Shown piece after piece: positions 8,296 through 43,203 of a DNA stretch of 64,000 nucleotides. Each line of letters opens with the position of its first letter. Position 1 is the first letter of the stretch. The notes under the pieces are model-generated. The model made no database searches, was not told the DNA's origin, and saw only the letters and a program-made list of their open reading frames with translations. This stretch comes from an uncultured Christensenella sp. (GTDB lineage: Bacteria; Bacillota; Clostridia; Christensenellales; CAG-917). The stretch spans positions 4,527 to 68,526 of the forward strand of contig CAJTQT010000001.1 of NCBI GenBank assembly GCA_910578325.1. The letters run 5' to 3'. A program made the translations under genes and the position numbers.

Positions 8296-8524
8296 CAACC
8301 TACCTCGCAATTTGCATATATCGTTTATAATCATATCACATAGTGCAATTTACGGCAATACCATATATGGGAATTTAGCGTAAATGCGCGTATACGCAAC
8401 TCATAAACACTATATATGGTATATTTTACGATTGAATGTTTTGCAAATTGATTTAGAGCGCGGAATGTGCTATTCTTATTCTCGCGCCCGCGGGTTCGGG
8501 TAGCAGAAAAGGCAGGGATATTAT

Positions 8525-9967
8525 ATGAGTTTCGCAAGATTTTCAAGCGACTTTCTTATGGAAACTTTCACGCTCGTGGACAATCTTTTTATCAACGAGC
8601 ATCTCCCCTATTGCGACGAAAAGCAGATTAAGGTATATCTGTACGGGCTTTTTCTGTGTTCTAATCCCGCAAACGACAATTCGGTAGACGCTCTATGCGC
8701 GAAACTGGATATGACAGAATCGGCAATTCTTTCAACATACGGTTATTTCGAAGATATGGGGCTCGTCCGCATTATCTCGCAAAAACCGCTTGAAGTAAAA
8801 TATCTCAGTCTCAAAAAATCTATGCAGCCGCCAAAAAAATATAAAGGCGAAAAGTGGAACGATTTCAACGCGCATTTACAGCAACTTTTCCCCGAACGTA
8901 TGCTCACGCCCAACGAGTACAACGAGTTTTATATGTTCCTTGACGAGAGCAAAATGGAACAGGACGCTATGCTTATGATAGTGCAATACTGCATAGACCT
9001 CAAAGGTATGAACGTACGCTATCCGTATATTCTCACCGTAGCAAGGAACTGGGCTTCAGACGGAGTGCGCAATGCGTCCGACGTGGAAGATAAACTCAAA
9101 GAATACGACACACAGTCTGAACAGATGAGAACGGTGCTTGCGGCTTTGGGAAGAAAAGGAGCGGCGGAACTGGAAGACAAGCAGATGCTTCTAAAATGGA
9201 CTCGCGTATGGGGCTATGAACTCGACGCAATCCTCACCGCGATAAAGACGCTCAAAGGCGGCAAGAGTTTCAACAAACTCGACGCAAGGCTGGACGAGTT
9301 TTACAGAATGTCGATATTTACAGCCGCGGAAATGAACGACTATCGCGCGCACCACGAACACCTGAGGAATCTCGCGCTTTCCGTCAACAAAAACCTCGGC
9401 GTGTTTTACGAATCGTTCGACCACGAAATCGAAGTTTACATCGTACCGTGGACGGCAAAGGGTTTCTCTGACGACGCTCTTGTCAAAATTGCGCACCACT
9501 GTTTTATTACAAACGTACGCACTCTTGACGGAATGAACAACGTCGTAAACAAATTCTACGCGCAGGGACTTCTTACAAGCGAGAGCATCGACGAATATTT
9601 GCATACGCAAATCGTAACGGACGGAAAAATCAAGAAGATAATCGAGAAAAGCGGGCGCTCCCGCGCCGTCACTCAGTCCGACCGCGAATACTATCGTACC
9701 TGGACGGTTGTTTGGGGGTTTGACGATTCCGTTATCCTCTACGCCGCCGAGATGTCAGTAGGCAAAACCTACCCCACTCCGTACATAAATCAACTTTTGT
9801 CGGGGTATAAGTCAAAAGGCGTGACAACCGTAGAAGATGCGAAAAAGATTTCGCCTGTAATTCCCGAGCAAACCCGCAAAGCGAATTTCGAAGAACGCTC
9901 CTACACAAAGGAAGAATTACAGTCTATAGTCACAAGCATAGACAGTCTTAAAGACGCGAAGGTCTGA
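8525..9967 (+). CDS. DnaD-domain replication initiation / membrane attachment protein (Bacillus DnaB/DnaD-like helicase-loading partner)
   Basis: 480-aa ORF with repeated DnaD C-terminal-type segments (YILTVARNWASDGVRNASDVE; YINQLLSGYKSKGVTTVEDA). A DnaI-like loader follows immediately, with the stop 1 nt before the next ATG. Confidence 0.75.
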   Translation: MSFARFSSDFLMETFTLVDNLFINEHLPYCDEKQIKVYLYGLFLCSNPANDNSVDALCAKLDMTESAILSTYGYFEDMGLVRIISQKPLEVKYLSLKKSMQPPKKYKGEKWNDFNAHLQQLFPERMLTPNEYNEFYMFLDESKMEQDAMLMIVQYCIDLKGMNVRYPYILTVARNWASDGVRNASDVEDKLKEYDTQSEQMRTVLAALGRKGAAELEDKQMLLKWTRVWGYELDAILTAIKTLKGGKSFNKLDARLDEFYRMSIFTAAEMNDYRAHHEHLRNLALSVNKNLGVFYESFDHEIEVYIVPWTAKGFSDDALVKIAHHCFITNVRTLDGMNNVVNKFYAQGLLTSESIDEYLHTQIVTDGKIKKIIEKSGRSRAVTQSDREYYRTWTVVWGFDDSVILYAAEMSVGKTYPTPYINQLLSGYKSKGVTTVEDAKKISPVIPEQTRKANFEERSYTKEELQSIVTSIDSLKDAKV

Positions 9968-36844: not shown

Positions 36845-37054
36845 ATGAACTTTTTTGCAAACGGTGGCTCAAACGGTTGTGGTTGTGGTTGCAATTGCTG
36901 CGACCTGATTCTTCTTATGCTCATACTCAACAGTTGCGGATGCGGCTGCGGATGCGGCAACACGGGATGCGGCGGCTGCACCAACAGTTGCGACCTCGTA
37001 TGGCTTATCCTCATTCTGTCCTGCGTATGCGGCAATAACTGCTGCTGCAAGTAA
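36845..37054 (+). CDS. Cys/Gly-rich hydrophobic mini-protein (69 aa, 17 Cys, two-fold internal repeat)
   Basis: GGAGG RBS 8 nt before the ATG. Sequence is MNFFANGGSNGCGCGCNCCDLILLMLILNSCGCGCGCGNTGCGGCTNSCDLVWLILILSCVCGNNCCCK. A strong hairpin follows directly after the stop. The antisense ORFs are nonsense. Confidence 0.6.
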   Translation: MNFFANGGSNGCGCGCNCCDLILLMLILNSCGCGCGCGNTGCGGCTNSCDLVWLILILSCVCGNNCCCK

Positions 37055-37431: not shown

Positions 37432-38817
37432 ATGGCACAACTTACAATGGAAAAGATTGTCGCGCTTGCAAAAAACCGCGGCTTTGTCTATCCCGGCAGC
37501 GAAATTTACGGCGGACTGTCCAACTCGTGGGATTTCGGTCCTCTCGGCGTCGCGCTCAAAAACAACATCAAACAAGCCTGGTGGAAAAAATTCGTCGTCG
37601 AAAATCCTCACACAGTGGGTATCGACAGCGCGATTCTTATGAATCCGACTACCTGGCAGGCTTCCGGACATATCGGAGGATTCTCCGACCCGCTTATGGA
37701 CTGCAAAAGTTGTAAATCCCGTCACCGCGCAGACAACCTCATCGAAGACTATATGGCAAAGCACGGCATCGAGGGCAACATCGCAGGCTGGACCAACGAA
37801 CAAATGGAACAGTACATCGCAGAAAATAAAATTCCCTGCCCCGTATGCGGCAACAGCGATTTTACCGGCGTAAGAAAATTCAACCTTATGTTCAAGACCT
37901 TTATCGGCGTAACGGAGGACAGCACTTCAACCGTATATCTCCGTCCCGAAACCGCGCAGGGCATTTTCGTGAACTTCAAAAACGTTCAGCGCACTACGCG
38001 CAAAAAGATACCTTTCGGAATAGGTCAGATAGGAAAGAGTTTCCGCAACGAAATCACGCCCGGGAACTTCATCTTCCGTATAAGAGAATTCGAACAAATG
38101 GAAATGGAATTCTTCTGCAAACCCGACACCGATCTCGAATGGTTTGCATACTGGAAAAACTTCTGCCATCAGTGGTTGCTCGGTCTGGGTATGCGCGAAG
38201 AGAATCTCCGTCTGCGCGATCACGACGCGGAGGAACTCTGCTTCTATTCAAAAGCAACAACCGACTTCGAATATAAATTCCCCTTCGGATGGGGCGAACT
38301 GTGGGGCGTTGCCGACCGTACCGATTACGACCTTAATCAGCATATCAAGACGAGCGGCAAAGATTTGAGTTATGTAGACCCTGTCACAAACGAAAAATAC
38401 GTACCCTACGTTGTCGAGCCGTCGCTCGGCGCGGACCGTGCGTTCCTCGCGTTCCTCTGCGACGCATACGACGAAGAACAGGTCGGCGAAAACGATACGC
38501 GAGTCGTGCTTCACTTCCACCCCGCGCTCGCACCCGTCAAAGTTGCAGTACTTCCGCTTCAAAAGCAACTCAATGAAAAAGCGGAATCTCTGTACGTCGA
38601 ACTCTCCAAACACTTTGCCTGCGATTTCGACACGTCCGCGTCAATCGGCAAACGTTATCGCAGACAGGACGAGATAGGAACTCCGTACTGCGTAACGGTT
38701 GACTTCGAATCCCTCGAAGACGAGTGTGTAACCGTGCGCGAGCGCGACACGATGGCGCAAGTCCGCCTGCCTATCGAAGATTTGGTGAAATACTTCGAAG
38801 ACAAAATGGAATATTGA
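37432..38817 (+). CDS. glyQS: Glycine--tRNA ligase (single-chain alpha2 GlyQS type)
   Basis: [34 protein letters not shown], class II motifs ([11 protein letters not shown]) and an anticodon-binding C-terminus are present. I chose the ATG at 37432 behind GGAGG. The track starts at a GTG at 37417. Confidence 0.9.
38787..38817 (+). repeat. Direct repeat copy 1 (last 10 codons of glyQS, including the stop codon)
   Basis: GAAATACTTCGAAGACAAAATGGAATATTGA recurs at 40774-40804 with 30/31 identity. Confidence 0.85.
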
Positions 38818-38834
38818 ATACAAATTTGATTTAT

Positions 38835-38866
38835 AAAAGAAGCGCGCATTTTTGCGTGCTTCTTTT
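38835..38866 (+). terminator. Rho-independent terminator after glyQS
   Basis: AAAAGAAGCGCGCA-TTTT-TGCGTGCTTCTTTT. Confidence 0.75.
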
Positions 38867-38883
38867 ATAAATCAACAAAATTC

Positions 38884-39096
38884 TTAATTTAAAGTTATAC
38901 TTATTTTTGTATCAGGCTCATCAACCATATTCGAAATAATCAATTTATCCGAAATATCCCCCTTTTCAATATTTAATTGAATTACCTCAAGAACATAATG
39001 CTTTAAATCCATTAAATCATTTAAATACATTTTTTTTCTTAGTTTATCACTGTTCGTCTTATGAACCTTTTCAAAATTTTTTAAAACCTGCTTCAT
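38884..39096 (-). CDS. Hypothetical 70-aa protein (island gene)
   Basis: AT-rich ORF with a GAAGG RBS 6 nt upstream. Sequence begins MKQVLKNFEKVHKTNSDKLRKKMYLNDLMDLKHY. I recognise no family. Confidence 0.45.
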   Translation of the reverse strand: MKQVLKNFEKVHKTNSDKLRKKMYLNDLMDLKHYVLEVIQLNIEKGDISDKLIISNMVDEPDTKISITLN

Positions 39097-39128
39097 ATTA
39101 ACCTTCTTTTTATAAATTTTACATTAAA

Positions 39129-39272
39129 TCAATTTAAGTACTCTATTTCAATTGTTGCCTTAGAATTATCAGATAAAAAAATCAATATCTTGTTATTGTC
39201 ATAAATTATCTCATTTGAAACTTCTAGATTCATACCTGCTCTAATTAACTCCAAAATCAAAGGTATTCCCAT
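39129..39272 (-). CDS. Hypothetical 47-aa protein (island gene, below ORF-track cutoff)
   Basis: Hand translation gives MGIPLILELIRAGMNLEVSNEIIYDNNKILIFLSDNSKATIEIEYLN*. GAGGAGG lies 9 nt upstream. It sits 32 nt upstream of the 70-aa ORF on the same strand. Confidence 0.35.
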   Translation of the reverse strand: MGIPLILELIRAGMNLEVSNEIIYDNNKILIFLSDNSKATIEIEYLN

Positions 39273-39403
39273 AATGCATCACCTCCTCTATTGCTTATTC
39301 GTTCGAATTATATTGCATAGGCTCATTTTAACATCTCCTAAGACTGACACAAAGCATTTTTACTCATACTTTGCAATAAAATTTTAGCAGAAGGTGGCTT
39401 ATT

Positions 39404-39862
39404 ATGTCGAAACTTGTCTATAGGCTTAAAACACTTTTTGATAGTTATGATTTATCAACCGTAACTGGACAACAAGCGTTAGAAATCAGCAAAACACAAT
39501 TAGGTAGATACTTATCGGGATTTTATGTGCCGTCATTAAAAAACGCAATAAAGATTTGTGATTACTTTGACTGTTCACTGGATTACCTACTTGGTATAGA
39601 CGAAGAAAAAAATCGATTCGGAAATTTTGAAGAACCTAATTTTGAGATTTTTTCAAAAAGATTCCTACAAATTCTCAGCGAGCACAATTTAAGCATATAT
39701 CAGGTTGCGAAGAAATTAGAAATCAATAGAAACAATTGGACTTATTGGAATAAGAAAAAAACTTTACCGACTTTGGAAACAATTTATAAGTTGGCTAAAG
39801 AGTTCGAAGTATCTGCCGAATTCCTAATCGGTCGGACAAAAATTAAAAAAGGATCACTATGA
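39404..39862 (+). CDS. Dual-HTH XRE-family regulator, paralog 1
   Basis: Two Cro/C1-type HTH modules are present (..ISKTQLGRYLSG..AIKICDYFDCSLDYLLG and ..IYQVAKKLEINRNNWTYW..LAKEFEVSAEFLIGR). AAGGTGG RBS. Confidence 0.8.
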   Translation: MSKLVYRLKTLFDSYDLSTVTGQQALEISKTQLGRYLSGFYVPSLKNAIKICDYFDCSLDYLLGIDEEKNRFGNFEEPNFEIFSKRFLQILSEHNLSIYQVAKKLEINRNNWTYWNKKKTLPTLETIYKLAKEFEVSAEFLIGRTKIKKGSL

Positions 39863-40293
39863 ATTTCAATCTAAGATTAAAAGAACTTCTTGACGAACAA
39901 GAGATTTCTGCAAGAAAACTGTGCGAACAAATAGGTATCGACCATACGTCGATATATATGTATTTACAAGGCGGTTATCCAAATTTAGAAAACGCAGTTA
40001 AAATTGCGAACTATTTCGACTGTACGCTAAATTTCTTGTTCTGTATTGATGAACTTCCTAATCAATATAAGTTTTTCTATGAATATAATGCAGGCTTATT
40101 TTTCAAAAGATACACGGATTTATTACGACTAAACAAAATCTCTCATTACAAGGTCGGTAAGGAACTGAAATTAGGGAATTCTACATTTAAAAAATGGCAA
40201 AGTGGCTGCATCCCTAAAATCGAAACGCTGACAAAACTATCAAAATATTTTGGCTACTCTATTGATTACCTCGTTGGTCGTAGCGATACGTAA
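39859..40293 (+). CDS. Dual-HTH XRE-family regulator, paralog 2
   Basis: Same two-module layout as paralog 1 (..ARKLCEQIGIDHTSIYMYL..IANYFDCTLNFLF and ..HYKVGKELKLGNSTFKKW..LSKYFGYSIDYLVGRSD). ATGA start/stop overlap with paralog 1. Confidence 0.8.
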   Translation: MNFNLRLKELLDEQEISARKLCEQIGIDHTSIYMYLQGGYPNLENAVKIANYFDCTLNFLFCIDELPNQYKFFYEYNAGLFFKRYTDLLRLNKISHYKVGKELKLGNSTFKKWQSGCIPKIETLTKLSKYFGYSIDYLVGRSDT

Positions 40294-40305
40294 AGGATAA
40301 AACAT

Positions 40306-40749
40306 ATGACCGAATTTACAAGAATTTTAAAAGAATTATTAGATGAACAAAACACTACAATTCGTTCTTTAAGTCCGCAAATTGGTATTCCCTACCAGGA
40401 ACTGTACACATACGTTAATGATGATTATTTTCCGTCAATATATAACGCCGAAAAACTTGCGAACTATTTCGACTGTTCGTTTGATTATCTCTTCGGTCTT
40501 TCAGATACTTTTAAAACATCCGAATTTAAAGAAGTCGACATTTCTAAATTTTATCCGAGGTACTTAGAATTATTACAAGAAAACAAAATTAGCCACCACC
40601 ATTTATACAAAACATTAGGGTTGAGCAAATCAGGTCTGAGTAAATGGAGAAACGGTTCTGTTCCAAAGATTGAAAGCCTGTTAAAAATCGCCAAATTTTT
40701 TGGCACTCACATAGATTATTTAGTAGGACGTAGCGACATAAGGTATTAG
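40306..40749 (+). CDS. Dual-HTH XRE-family regulator, paralog 3
   Basis: Same layout (..LANYFDCSFDYLFG and ..IAKFFGTHIDYLVGRSD). AAGGA RBS. Lies 12 nt after paralog 2. Confidence 0.8.
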   Translation: MTEFTRILKELLDEQNTTIRSLSPQIGIPYQELYTYVNDDYFPSIYNAEKLANYFDCSFDYLFGLSDTFKTSEFKEVDISKFYPRYLELLQENKISHHHLYKTLGLSKSGLSKWRNGSVPKIESLLKIAKFFGTHIDYLVGRSDIRY

Positions 40750-40773
40750 CAAATCAAAACCCACAGTATCGGA

Positions 40774-40804
40774 GAAATACTTCGAAGACAAAATGAAATA
40801 TTGA
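40774..40804 (+). repeat. Direct repeat copy 2 (relic glyQS 3' end)
   Basis: GAAATACTTCGAAGACAAAATGAAATATTGA differs from copy 1 by one substitution. In the glyQS frame it would read KYFEDKMKY*. Confidence 0.85.
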
Positions 40805-40832: not shown

Positions 40833-40865
40833 GAAGAAAACGCGCAGGACTGCGCGCTTCTTTTT
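40833..40865. terminator. Bidirectional terminator between the island/relic glyQS end and rex
   Basis: GAAGAAAACGCGCAGGACTGCGCGCTTCTTTTT has a GC-rich stem with A/T runs on both sides. Confidence 0.6.
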
Positions 40866-40898: not shown

Positions 40899-41546
40899 TT
40901 ATTCTCCGAGCGGCGGAGTTTTCAACTGCATACTCAAAAGCGCGAGCGACGCCGCCAAATCTTCGCCTTTGACCGCTATGCCTTCGGGCAATGTAAGATG
41001 TACAGGCGCAAAACACCATATCGCTTTAATGCCCGCGTCAACCATACTGTCGGCAACCGACTGAGCCGCAGCCGACGGCACGCAGATAATGCCGAGCCGT
41101 ATTTTGTATCTTTCCACAATGCCTTTAAGTTTATCCGTCGAATAAACGGGCTTTCCGTTGACCGAAGTATCTACCACTTTTTCGTCGGCGTCGAAAGCGC
41201 ATACGATATTCAAGCCGTAGTTACGAAATCCGTCATAGCCGAGGATTGCCCTTCCCAGTCCGCCTACACCTACAAGCACAGCGTCGCGCGTATTGTTATA
41301 GCCGAGGAAATCTTCGAGGTCGGCAATGAGTTCTTTTGTGACGAATCCCGTCTTAGGCTTGCCCGCCACCGAGGATACGAGCGCAATGTCTTTGCGCACC
41401 TGTACGGGATTGAGCCCAAGTCCGTTTGCTATCGTAGTGCTCGAAACGTTGGGAACGTTCTGTTTGTTGAGTTGATACAGATAGCGCAAATAGGACGGCA
41501 ACCGCCTCAGCGTTGCTTTTGACATTTCGCTGTTCTGTTCCTGCAT
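40899..41546 (-). CDS. rex: Redox-sensing transcriptional repressor Rex
   Basis: ATLRRLPSYLRYL winged-helix N-terminus and a Rossmann GVGGLGRAI motif. 215 aa. Confidence 0.9.
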   Translation of the reverse strand: MQEQNSEMSKATLRRLPSYLRYLYQLNKQNVPNVSSTTIANGLGLNPVQVRKDIALVSSVAGKPKTGFVTKELIADLEDFLGYNNTRDAVLVGVGGLGRAILGYDGFRNYGLNIVCAFDADEKVVDTSVNGKPVYSTDKLKGIVERYKIRLGIICVPSAAAQSVADSMVDAGIKAIWCFAPVHLTLPEGIAVKGEDLAASLALLSMQLKTPPLGE

Positions 41547-41593: not shown

Positions 41594-42967
41594 TCAGTCA
41601 TTCTGATTTTCAAGCGCTTCGTCGACTTTGAGCATTATTGCGCACTCGATGCGCTTTTTAAAGAGGTCGCAACCGTAAGCATAAACGCCGTTGACGCTTC
41701 CCGTCGCATTGTACGCGTTCGCCGCGCATCCTCCCGAACAATAGAGTCTCGCCCAGCAGTCGGCGCATTCCGTGCGAGAATATGCGTTGCATCTTTTAAA
41801 CTCGTCCCTGATATCCGTGCGGATTACGCCCTGCCAGATATCGCCCATAAGATAGTCTTTGTTCCCTACAAACTGGTGGCAGGGATACAACTCGCCCGTC
41901 GGTGTGACGGCAAGATATTCCGTGCCGCTCCCGCAACCCGATATCCTCTTATATATGCACGGTCCGCCGTCGAGGTCGAGCATATAGTGATAAAACGTAA
42001 ACGGCTTTCCTTCTTTGCGCCTTTTTATCATCATCTCTGCGAGTTTGCCGTACTCGGCGCAAACAATCAACTTGTCCTCTTCGGTCAAAGCGTACTTATC
42101 TGTCGGCGGAGATACAACAGGCTCCATACTCAGTTCGTCGAATCCGAGGTCGAGCATCGTCTGTATGTCCTTCGTGAAATCGGGATTGAAATGCGTAAAC
42201 GTGCCGCGCATATAATAACTCTTATCGCCGCGGGCTTTTACGAACTTCTGAAATTTCGGGACTATTACGTCGAAACTGCCCACGCCTCCCGCCGTTTTGC
42301 GGAAGCGGTCGTTCACCTCTTTTCTGCCGTCGAGACTGAGCACGACGTTGTCCATTTCTCTGTTGGCAAATTCGATAACCTCGTCATCAAGAAGCATACC
42401 GTTGGTCGTAAGCGTAAAGCGGAAATTCTTGCCGTGTTCCTTTTCGACCGAACGCGCGTAAGCGACAAGTTTTTTTACTACGTCGAAGTTCATAAGCGGT
42501 TCGCCGCCGAAAAAATCCACTTCGAGATTGCGACGCGTTCCGCTGTTTTCTATGAGGAAATCAAGGGCGCGTTTGCCCACTTCAAACGTCATAAGCGCGC
42601 GTTCGCCGTGGTATTTCCCCTGAGCCGCAAAACAATACTCGCAATCGAGATTGCACGTATGCGCAACGTGCAGACACATCGCCTTTACAACCGTTTCGCG
42701 CTTTGCAAGCGCGTCTGCGTTGGGGCGGAATTCATCGCAAGAGAATAAAACTCCCTGCGCTTTCAATGCGTCGACATCATCGAGACAAGCCTTTACTTCT
42801 TCCTCGCTTATCCCGTGTCGTATTGAAACCTGCCCAATGAGTTCTTCCCGCGGAGTGCTTTCGTATAAATTGATAATATCAAACGCAACGTCATCCACGC
42901 AATGCACGCTTCCGCTCGCTACGTCGAGCACGATATTATATCCGTTTTGTCTGAACGAATGTATCAT
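41594..42967 (-). CDS. Radical SAM/SPASM thioether cross-link-forming SCIFF peptide maturase
   Basis: CNLDCEYC radical-SAM cluster motif, a Cys-rich SPASM C-terminus (CADCWARLYCSGGCAANA), and a location immediately downstream of a SCIFF precursor. Confidence 0.9.
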   Translation of the reverse strand: MIHSFRQNGYNIVLDVASGSVHCVDDVAFDIINLYESTPREELIGQVSIRHGISEEEVKACLDDVDALKAQGVLFSCDEFRPNADALAKRETVVKAMCLHVAHTCNLDCEYCFAAQGKYHGERALMTFEVGKRALDFLIENSGTRRNLEVDFFGGEPLMNFDVVKKLVAYARSVEKEHGKNFRFTLTTNGMLLDDEVIEFANREMDNVVLSLDGRKEVNDRFRKTAGGVGSFDVIVPKFQKFVKARGDKSYYMRGTFTHFNPDFTKDIQTMLDLGFDELSMEPVVSPPTDKYALTEEDKLIVCAEYGKLAEMMIKRRKEGKPFTFYHYMLDLDGGPCIYKRISGCGSGTEYLAVTPTGELYPCHQFVGNKDYLMGDIWQGVIRTDIRDEFKRCNAYSRTECADCWARLYCSGGCAANAYNATGSVNGVYAYGCDLFKKRIECAIMLKVDEALENQND

Positions 42968-43056: not shown

Positions 43057-43203
43057 TTATTTGCCCGCTTTCTCGCACTTCTGATTTGCTACTCCGCAGG
43101 ATGTTTTGCACGCGGACTGGCAGGAAGTTTGGCATTCGCCGCAACCGCCGTTCTTTTTGCTATCGCTGAGATTGCGGGTTTTCAAAGTGACAATTCTTTT
43201 CAT
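43057..43203 (-). CDS. SCIFF (six-cysteines-in-forty-five) ranthipeptide precursor, 48 aa
   Basis: Hand translation gives MKRIVTLKTRNLSDSKKNGGCGECQTSCQSACKTSCGVANQKCEKAGK*. The GGCGECQTSCQSACKTSC core is the SCIFF hallmark. AAGGAG RBS. It is below the ORF-track size cutoff. Confidence 0.9.
   Translation of the reverse strand: MKRIVTLKTRNLSDSKKNGGCGECQTSCQSACKTSCGVANQKCEKAGK

Follow-up and report, generated by a model that had tools for sequence, protein, structure and literature searches.

Tandem two-domain XRE proteins on a low-GC island of an uncultured Christensenella species: candidate single-chain repressors of phased direct repeats

What do three consecutive, paralogous regulator genes control when they sit together on a small, low-GC island between housekeeping genes? 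This arrangement is found in a 64,000-nucleotide (nt) stretch of DNA from an uncultured Christensenella sp. (assembly GCA_910578325.1, contig CAJTQT010000001.1, positions 4,527 to 68,526), here called the window, in which the genes p1, p2 and p3 each encode a protein with two helix-turn-helix (HTH) domains of the XRE type. On balance, the comparisons described here point to p1, p2 and p3 as probable single-chain two-HTH repressors that would act on phased direct repeats and control both their own operon and a divergent one, within a self-contained cassette of about 2 kb. The three genes, with their products in amino acids (aa), are as follows.

39404-39862, plus strand: p1, 152-aa two-domain XRE/HTH_3 protein of the position-1 lineage, with the C-terminal tail ...FLIGRT
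39859-40293, plus strand: p2, 144-aa two-domain XRE protein belonging to the position-2 lineage; start codon and p1 stop codon overlap in ATGA
40306-40749, plus strand: p3, 147-aa two-domain XRE protein

An earlier note on this DNA had described these three open reading frames (ORFs) as translationally coupled paralogues, and its description is borne out by the ORF calls. The ATGA overlap at 39859-39862 is present and supports translational coupling of p1 and p2, and the 12-nt gap between p2 and p3 (40294-40305) is present with its AAGGA, which overlaps the p2 stop codon. Each protein has an N-terminal and a C-terminal stretch matching Pfam HTH_3, HTH_26 and HTH_19; these matches exceed the gathering thresholds in two stretches per protein (E = 1e-14 to 1e-18), and the HTH_3 (PF01381) scores of the three proteins are 53.4, 55.4 and 67.4 bits against a cutoff of 23. 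All of the motifs quoted in the note are found, namely YFDC(S/T)(L/F)(D/N)(Y/F)L, (I/A)(D/E)(Y/F)L(V/I)GR(S/T), LKELLDEQ, NKISH and PKIE(T/S)L. Pairwise identities are 38% for p1-p2, 30% for p1-p3 and 48% for p2-p3. Across the paralogues, N-terminal domains resemble N-terminal domains and C-terminal domains resemble C-terminal domains more than the two domains of one protein resemble each other, which places the domain duplication before the gene duplications. For p3, a confident AlphaFold2 model from an alignment of 21 family sequences (pLDDT 94.8, pTM 0.87) consists of two five-helix bundles, with helices at residues 3-14, 19-26, 30-38, 45-55 and 59-62 in the first and 79-92, 97-104, 110-115, 122-132 and 136-139 in the second, and a linker of about 15 residues between them. 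Single p3 domains have the XRE fold, superposing on the DNA-binding domains of P22 c2, SinR and ImmR in a Foldseek search against the PDB. By both sequence and fold, p1, p2 and p3 belong to the XRE/HTH_3 superfamily. Membership of the RstR family (NCBIfam NF041951) was rejected, as the three proteins score 73.5, 50.3 and 53.0 bits against a cutoff of 80, each over two stretches.

The p2 coding sequence also contains a terminator-like hairpin with a T-rich tail (39935-39955, plus strand; 8-pair stem with 3 G-C pairs). This is probably a chance match, and it could act as an attenuator of p2 and p3 expression.

The note had stated that no effector gene lies beside the regulators. This did not hold, since two minus-strand ORFs form a conserved divergent operon on the same island, whose gene content comes to five ORFs.

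39129-39272, minus strand: orf47 (47 aa), first gene of the divergent operon, with the Shine-Dalgarno sequence GGAGGTG at 39280-39286 (minus strand)
38884-39096, minus strand: orf70 (70 aa), second gene of the divergent operon, with the Shine-Dalgarno sequence AGAAGG

The Shine-Dalgarno sequences preceding both genes are strong. Related loci (designated by L numbers) came from a scan of one genome per GTDB species, which gave 65 loci; ORFs were then called in all of them and searched with a hidden Markov model of the family. Among these, homologues of orf47 (47-48 aa) are directly divergent from p1 orthologues in L176 (49% identity) and L177 (39%), and the layout of one or more minus-strand small ORFs followed by p1 and p2 recurs in both. 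Orthologues of orf70 occupy the same position in L007 (70 aa, 48% identity, ratio of non-synonymous to synonymous substitution rates, dN/dS, of about 0.29) and in L176 (65 aa). Neither orf47 nor orf70 matched a family in Pfam, NCBIfam, PHROG or PADLOC, and an index of 5.8 billion proteins held no homologue of orf70 besides itself. A PADLOC 'effector' model matched orf70 at E=0.0095 and was judged not credible. The single-sequence AlphaFold2 model of orf70, which is of low confidence (pLDDT 74, pTM 0.44), has a long helix and a beta-hairpin.

Clustering of all ORFs within 3.5 kb of family genes extended this layout to the wider family. The gene immediately upstream is usually divergent; in at least 31 related loci it falls into one of three recurring families of small proteins, always encoded on the opposite strand. 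C1 partners (about 130-145 aa, 11 loci) have no family match. C2 partners (about 155-185 aa, 11 loci) weakly match YpsA/SLOG (Pfam E=2e-5, below the cutoff; PHROG 289, E=6e-8); SLOG-fold proteins are associated with nucleotide sensing, and YpsA with an inhibition of cell division. C3 partners are of about 67-90 aa (9 loci). Comparison with C3 by hhalign gave probabilities of 49% for orf70 and 35% for orf47 with three sequences and 7.6% with two sequences, so that orf70 and orf47 may be remote C3 relatives, a relationship that is suggestive only.

Between the two operons lies a shared control region. It was compared in two alignments, one of the window with L013, L029 and L032 and the other of the window with L176 and L177, and promoters were assigned by consensus from these sequence comparisons.

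39273-39403, no strand assigned: shared control region with predicted back-to-back promoters and phylogenetically footprinted boxes, from alignments of orthologous intergenic regions
39301-39321: conserved block, GTTCGAATTATATTGCATAGG in the window and GTTCGAATTRTATTGCATRGG as the alignment block
39325-39333, reverse complement: predicted leftward extended -10 element, TGTTAAAAT, from consensus
39343-39349: ACTGACA box, conserved in the p1-clade alignment
39370-39382: predicted rightward -10 region, TTTGCAATAAAAT, from consensus
39390-39397: p1 ribosome-binding site, GAAGGTGG
39405-39418, plus strand: proposed operator TGTCGAAACTTGTC, a direct repeat of two TGTC(G/T)A boxes at a 10-bp interval, located over the p1 start codon

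Between the window, L176 and L177, the 21-nt block at 39301-39321 has hardly changed, in contrast to its diverged surroundings. The proposed operator, TGTCGAAACTTGTC, is the sole match to its motif in the window, where 0.14 would be expected. Across the related loci, the pattern TGTC[GT]A-N3-6-TGTC occurs at a density of 1.0 per kb between -120 and +40 of the first family gene and at 0.007 per kb elsewhere. In 62 upstream regions, every pair of TGTC boxes separated by 30 bp or less has a spacing of 10 bp (13 times), 20 bp (3 times) or 30 bp (once), where shuffled sequences would give about 0.08 pairs per spacing. Such phased boxes precede the first family gene or lie at its start in 13 to 18 loci, depending on the way of counting. 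The number of boxes shows no clear trend with gene copy number across loci.

A single-chain repressor is proposed because direct repeats spaced by one helical turn suit a head-to-tail pair of HTH domains, and a symmetric dimer would read a palindrome. A fixed two-domain chain without a separate dimerisation or sensor domain fits the same monomeric mode. In the proposed scheme, p1, p2 and p3 would be co-transcribed from one promoter lying back-to-back with that of orf47 and orf70. The two HTH domains of one chain would be docked head-to-tail into consecutive major grooves along the same DNA face, so that the two TGTC(G/T)A boxes, exactly 10 bp apart and here placed over the p1 start codon, would be read by a single protein. 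The further conserved boxes between the promoters would also be read by p1-p3. The proteins would then shut off their own operon through the boxes that cover the start codon and the early transcript, and the divergent operon through the inter-promoter boxes. Each paralogue is expected to recognise different boxes within the shared control region, and perhaps further sites elsewhere, because their recognition helices differ from one another and are kept within each lineage (p1 has ISKTQLGRYLSG and INRNNWTYWNKK; L013 has ISRTQLGRYISG and INRNNLVYWNKK).

Several points weigh against this scheme. Phased boxes are detectable in only about 18 of the 65 loci, or about a quarter. In the p1 clade the first TGTC box spans Met-Ser-Lys/Asn codons, and its conservation could partly reflect coding constraint. 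Another clade, whose members are mostly paired with C2 or C3, has a GTTACA-N9-TGTAAC palindrome between back-to-back -10-like elements, and this palindrome, whether instead of or besides phased boxes, would suit a dimer. Its 18 occurrences in 22 kb of upstream sequence, compared with 11 in 731 kb elsewhere, amount to an enrichment of about 50-fold. Its extended form, TAGGnAnAnnTGTTACA-N9-TGTAACAnnnTTnCCTA, lies 36-109 nt before the predicted start of the family gene, flanked by outward-facing -10-like elements, in L031, L033, L034, L036, L038-L041, L043, L046-L048, L050, L052, L053, L059, L063, L071 and L084; the palindrome is absent from the control region of the window. No solved structure with the two-domain arrangement was found, as phmmer against the PDB returned none and Foldseek against the PDB returned single-domain matches only. 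The BFVD database holds multi-HTH phage proteins with a different domain arrangement, the best TM-score being 0.59. Finally, p1-p3 may act by activation instead of repression.

The age of the three paralogues bears on whether they have separate roles. The note had listed a diversifying duplication under phage or mobile-element pressure among its possibilities, and a recent tandem duplication under diversifying selection was rejected on the basis of a neighbour-joining tree and the identity matrix. In these, p1 groups with the first array genes of L176, L177, L013, L029 and L032 (42-67% identity; 28-38% to the position-2 and p3-lineage genes compared), and p2 groups with the second genes of the same five species-level loci (44-67%). 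The third gene has a lineage of its own (L007 59%, L026 56%, L008/L027 50% identity), and L029 is a three-gene array with the same 4-nt overlap between p1 and p2. Given position-matched orthologues and a separate p3 lineage, the paralogues are therefore older than the species. Between orthologues, the non-synonymous rate (dN) is 0.22-0.46 for island genes and 0.05-0.14 for GlyRS and Rex, the products of the flanking genes. The dN/dS ratio is about 0.2-0.3 in the two island-gene comparisons in which it could be computed, where dS is near saturation. Comparing dN/dS between the paralogues, as the note had proposed, was uninformative, synonymous sites being saturated even between orthologues (dS not computable or above 1.5). 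The island genes thus appear to be constrained and fast-evolving, and the comparisons favour three non-redundant regulators.

The family is chromosomal, and its 65 loci come almost entirely from Christensenella, Christensenellaceae or 'uncultured Clostridia/Eubacteriales' metagenome-assembled genomes (MAGs) of the gut, with humans, mice, ruminants, rabbits and chickens as hosts. There is one family gene in 43 loci, two in 16, three in 3 and four in 3; several MAGs hold more than one module (L036/L051, L070/L074 and L033/L055). The flanks are unrelated housekeeping genes that vary by locus, among them BipA, DnaB, CTP synthase, PBP and RF-1. The contrary outcome considered in the note, that homologues are ordinary single-copy chromosomal regulators in unrelated neighbourhoods, thus holds for the 43 single-copy loci and fails for the 22 with arrays of two to four genes. 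Its other contrary outcome, a loss of intact frames in related islands, was not seen, as the frames are conserved intact there. A word-indexed search with p3 gave only 20 clusters, and a full profile search gave 255 clusters (at 50% identity) at E<=1e-30 and 5,024 at E<=1e-10, with unrelated poly-XRE proteins of up to 12 HTH repeats at the top of the list. Tandem XRE domains in one chain are not rare in Firmicutes. A search of the accessible literature on tandem-XRE-domain proteins found no paper characterising them. When 2.9 million viral contigs were searched with the family profile, only two weak single-domain matches were obtained.

A different genetic setting surrounds a p3-lineage homologue, P0003, in L008-L012 and L027. 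Here the dual-HTH gene follows a 68-aa single-HTH XRE gene in an operon and is itself followed by an overlapping 206-aa ORF, the product of which is predicted to be membrane-anchored and has weak Ig-like matches. The operon is divergent from a gene for an 895-aa ABC_tran+FtsX transporter, and L008 has downstream genes for an integrase and a MobL relaxase.

The alternative that survives best, although we regard it as unlikely, is that p1-p3 act mainly in trans, as a hetero-oligomeric or overlapping set, on genes elsewhere in the genome, for example to silence mobile elements or to set a cell-state switch. It would draw on the same distinct, lineage-conserved recognition helices in paralogues that are predicted to be co-expressed, and on the MAGs with more than one module. 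Paralogous XRE factors of Caulobacter form heteromers and share a common regulon (PMC10688885). However, the window holds no second match to the phased boxes, the motif is not enriched in the flanks of related loci, and a single copy suffices in most of them.

The GC content of the island is 0.24-0.34 across about 38800-40800, compared with 0.47-0.55 in the flanks and about 0.50 for the genome. This contrast, together with a bounding 34-nt direct repeat, upholds the claim of the note that the genes sit on an inserted island. Its borders are marked by the following features, in which attL and attR denote left and right attachment sites.

37447-38817, plus strand: glyS, glycyl-tRNA synthetase gene
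38784-38817, plus strand: attL-like left repeat copy, comprising the last codons and stop of glyS, 32/34 identical to 40771-40804
38826-38875, no strand assigned: left GC hairpin resembling a bidirectional terminator, an inverted repeat with 23-nt arms that are 96% complementary, from the terminator scan
40771-40804, plus strand: attR-like right repeat copy, a displaced glyS pseudo-3' end with the coding potential ...EKYFEDKMKY*
40837-40860, no strand assigned: right GC hairpin, terminator-like and common to the p1-p3 operon and the convergent rex, with 35-nt arms that are 77% complementary
40899-41546, minus strand: rex, convergent with the p1-p3 operon

The left hairpin would terminate both glyS on the plus strand and the orf47-orf70 operon on the minus strand. 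The right hairpin resembles it, and each repeat copy is followed by a similar GC hairpin. Rfam searches of the island gave only matches below threshold, located on the terminator hairpins, and no RNA family was found in the control region.

The flanking direct repeats duplicate the 3' end of glyS, as attL and attR sites do, and agree at 32 of 34 positions, including a fully identical 21-nt core, AAATACTTCGAAGACAAAATG. Site-specific integration classically leaves such a duplicated 3' end of a housekeeping gene, and the cassette appears to have entered the glyS 3' end by site-specific recombination. The right copy retains a glyS-like frame ending KY*, like the native glyS of L176 and L007, and native GlyRS proteins of relatives end KY* or RY*. 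These endings are consistent with a crossover inside the identical core, in which case the right copy would be the original gene end. The flanks are synonymously saturated, yet the non-coding repeat copy still matches at 32 of 34 positions, which suggests recent recombination at the site or selection on the repeat. No recombinase or integrase was matched among the five island ORFs in Pfam or NCBIfam.

Three related species (window, L176 and L007; GlyRS about 92% identical) carry versions of the island at this same site with different contents.

Window: o70-o47-p1-p2-p3
L176: o65-o47-p1-p2
L007: o70 and a truncated p3-like gene

The p3-like gene of L007 is truncated at its N-terminus and lies only 7 bp from the o70 start, which suggests an internal deletion. 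Between this gene and rex, L007 has 570 bp (8415-8984) that are GC-rich, with stem-like stretches and no long ORF, and that have no counterpart in the window. On short metagenome contigs (L004, L005 and L006) with an identical p3, agreement with the window stops precisely where the right repeat ends. The same alternative junction, AT-rich and with the hairpin AAAAATCCACC...GGTGGATTTTT, is present in L004 and L005, which come from two samples, and L006 continues with 21 nt of left-junction sequence and then unrelated DNA. These alternative junctions could reflect tandem accretion or replacement at the attachment site, or assembly chimeras across a 31-nt repeat. Across loci, modules are consistently lower in GC than their flanks, by a mean difference of 0.045, the largest differences being those of the window (0.33 vs 0.49), L007 and L018.

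An empty site was sought in a Rex metagenome scan, in which none of 80 loci had glyS beside rex. Exact look-ups of GlyRS and p2 returned island-bearing contigs only, and all five contigs with an identical GlyRS carry the island. The attachment core and the alternative-junction hairpin each had 0 matches in viral contigs, and no empty site, circular junction or partner recombinase was recovered from the metagenome and viral searches.

These features might mark the island as the leftover immunity or regulatory region of a decayed prophage, integrative and conjugative element or integrative and mobilizable element that has lost its integrase and cargo and has no function of its own. Low GC, the att-like repeats at a housekeeping-gene 3' end, the apparently strain-variable junctions immediately after the right repeat and the truncated L007 version all accord with such an origin, as do the divergent layout, which resembles a lysogeny switch, and the best PHROG and BFVD matches, which are 'repressor CI' proteins. 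Even so, we consider it quite improbable. The viral contigs yielded only the two weak matches noted above, and in dozens of species orthologous modules are flanked by unrelated housekeeping genes, without phage or conjugation genes in the vicinity. The reading frames are intact, with constraint on non-synonymous change, searches of Pfam, NCBIfam and PHROG gave no HTH or Cro-like match for the small divergent proteins, and neither an S24 peptidase nor an ImmA partner is present. The more specific assignment to a temperate-phage switch of the CI type was rejected, as the island has no phage genes and viral matches are so few; in CI-type repressors, moreover, the second half of the protein would be an oligomerisation or S24 domain, whereas here it is another HTH_3 domain, and no protease gene is adjacent. 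The toxin, defence-gene or prophage links for which the note had suggested looking were not found in PADLOC, the locus neighbourhoods or the viral contigs.

More speculatively, the modules of about 1-2 kb, each a dual-HTH gene with its divergent gene, might be recombinase-less mobile regulatory cassettes of an unrecognised kind, inserting at gene 3' ends or terminator hairpins with a duplication of 31-35 bp and reaching several copies per genome. Their proteins would read 10-bp-phased direct repeats as monomers, and the cassettes would serve as selfish or protective switches, for example by silencing incoming related elements or gating a growth-arrest peptide. We think this improbable. In a goat-caecum MAG, two separate modules, each a small minus-strand ORF followed by a plus-strand dual-HTH gene, are each bracketed by an identical 34-35-nt palindromic terminator hairpin, the hairpin sequence differing between the two modules.

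L070, 5441-5473 and 6434-6467: hairpin copies around the first module
L074, 5500-5534 and 6430-6464: hairpin copies around the second module

The hairpins look as if a target terminator had been duplicated on insertion.

The least probable alternative is a toxin-antitoxin-like or defence module in which orf47 and orf70 (C1, the SLOG/YpsA-like C2 and C3 elsewhere) are growth-inhibiting effectors silenced by the dual-HTH repressors: the repressor is tightly linked to a small gene in a compact, AT-rich and apparently mobile cassette and C2 partners weakly match YpsA/SLOG, but no island protein matched a toxin, nuclease or defence family and PADLOC gave generic HTH matches only, the genes are divergent and not co-operonic as in type II toxin-antitoxin systems, and the three partner families are mutually unrelated. 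Two related identities were rejected. For an XRE antitoxin of the HigA, MqsA or PezA type, the neighbours are divergent and have no toxin match in Pfam, NCBIfam or PADLOC, and the HigA model gives 22.8 bits where 47.7 are required. For a known anti-phage system in PADLOC-DB, only the HTH parts of RmrA, CapH and HTH_VI match.

Single-chain repression of a shared control region remains the reading that we favour, and it would set p1-p3 apart from characterised regulators. Canonical XRE repressors (434, P22 c2, SinR, ImmR and C.AhdI) have the same five-helix fold, p3 domains superposing at a root-mean-square deviation of 1.4-2.9 A, and are likewise small autoregulators, often at divergent promoters. 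They have one HTH per chain, whereas p1-p3 have two, without a separate oligomerisation or sensor domain, and are associated with 10-bp-phased direct repeats. The norm for XRE proteins is a symmetric dimer on a palindrome (PMC12565409). A functional analogy, and only that, may be drawn with MarA, SoxS and Rob, in which one chain places two HTH motifs in adjacent major grooves of a single DNA face, over an asymmetric site of about 20 bp. MarA-DNA structures contain two HTH motifs of one chain arranged in this way. The fold family is unrelated, with no HTH_18/AraC match in p1-p3, and MarA acts for the most part by activation.

The nearest conceptual relatives are two groups of single-HTH proteins. 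In the XRE cluster of Caulobacter and phage phiCbK (RtrA/RtrB/CdxA/CdxB/TgrL), the members form heteromers with a common regulon (PMC10688885) and, like p1-p3, represent a radiation of paralogous XRE regulators that may act together; they are single-HTH, alphaproteobacterial and shared with phage, whereas the p1-p3 family is two-domain, clostridial, organised as tandem operons and all but missing from viral contigs. Streptomyces XRE-DUF397 (WhiJ/BldB-like) pairs (PMC10364602) likewise comprise many paralogues per genome, with the XRE protein tied to a small protein. In those pairs, which are from other taxa, DUF397 is downstream and co-directional and the XRE protein has a single HTH, and the p1-p3 cassette has no DUF397. 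Firmicutes also contain poly-HTH_3 proteins (P0021-P0027, with 3 to 12 XRE repeats) whose tandem XRE domains have ...DYL(L/V)GR(S/T)D tails. These are much longer and of a different lineage, whereas the p1-p3 family is fixed at two domains and about 145 aa. Proteins P0021-P0025 and P0046 are of 700-3,700 aa with 5-12 tandem XRE repeats, each ending ...DYL(L/V)G.... As an element, the island resembles cis-mobilizable elements (CIMEs) or satellite integrative elements in its att-like flanking repeats duplicating a gene 3' end, lack of a recombinase and apparently strain-variable junctions. Described CIMEs are far larger than 2 kb.

Two features of neighbouring genes were also noted. Upstream of glyS, a 69-aa Cys/Gly-rich ORF (36845-37054, plus strand; MNFFANGGSNGCGCGCNCCD...CGCGCGCG...CCCK) has two hydrophobic stretches and no NCBIfam match; it is conserved nearly residue for residue in L007 (5977-6186), where it was called as a gene, and the gene caller chose an overlapping 129-aa minus-strand ORF over it in the window. 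Downstream of rex lie a radical-SAM maturase gene (41594-42967, minus strand) and a SCIFF six-cysteine ranthipeptide precursor (43057-43203, minus strand; TIGR03973, 81 bits), a pair that is an ordinary clostridial locus.

From sequence comparison, the family appears to be an uncharacterised, taxon-restricted group of tandem-domain XRE regulators in compact cassettes, with a putative non-canonical operator geometry. XRE regulators are among the commonest bacterial transcription factors and are generally treated as dimers that read palindromes. This family is unusual in fusing two XRE domains into a single protein of about 145 residues, in its conserved operator-like boxes, which are direct repeats with a period of exactly one helical turn, and in its compact cassettes with a small divergent gene, sometimes holding ordered old arrays. 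If the proposed binding mode is true, these proteins would be a natural counterpart of engineered single-chain repressors, and they would provide a simple rule for predicting the operators of tandem-XRE proteins, thousands of which have no known function. Christensenellaceae are prominent in the gut microbiota. They are hard to study genetically, and self-contained switches from them could serve as genetic parts.

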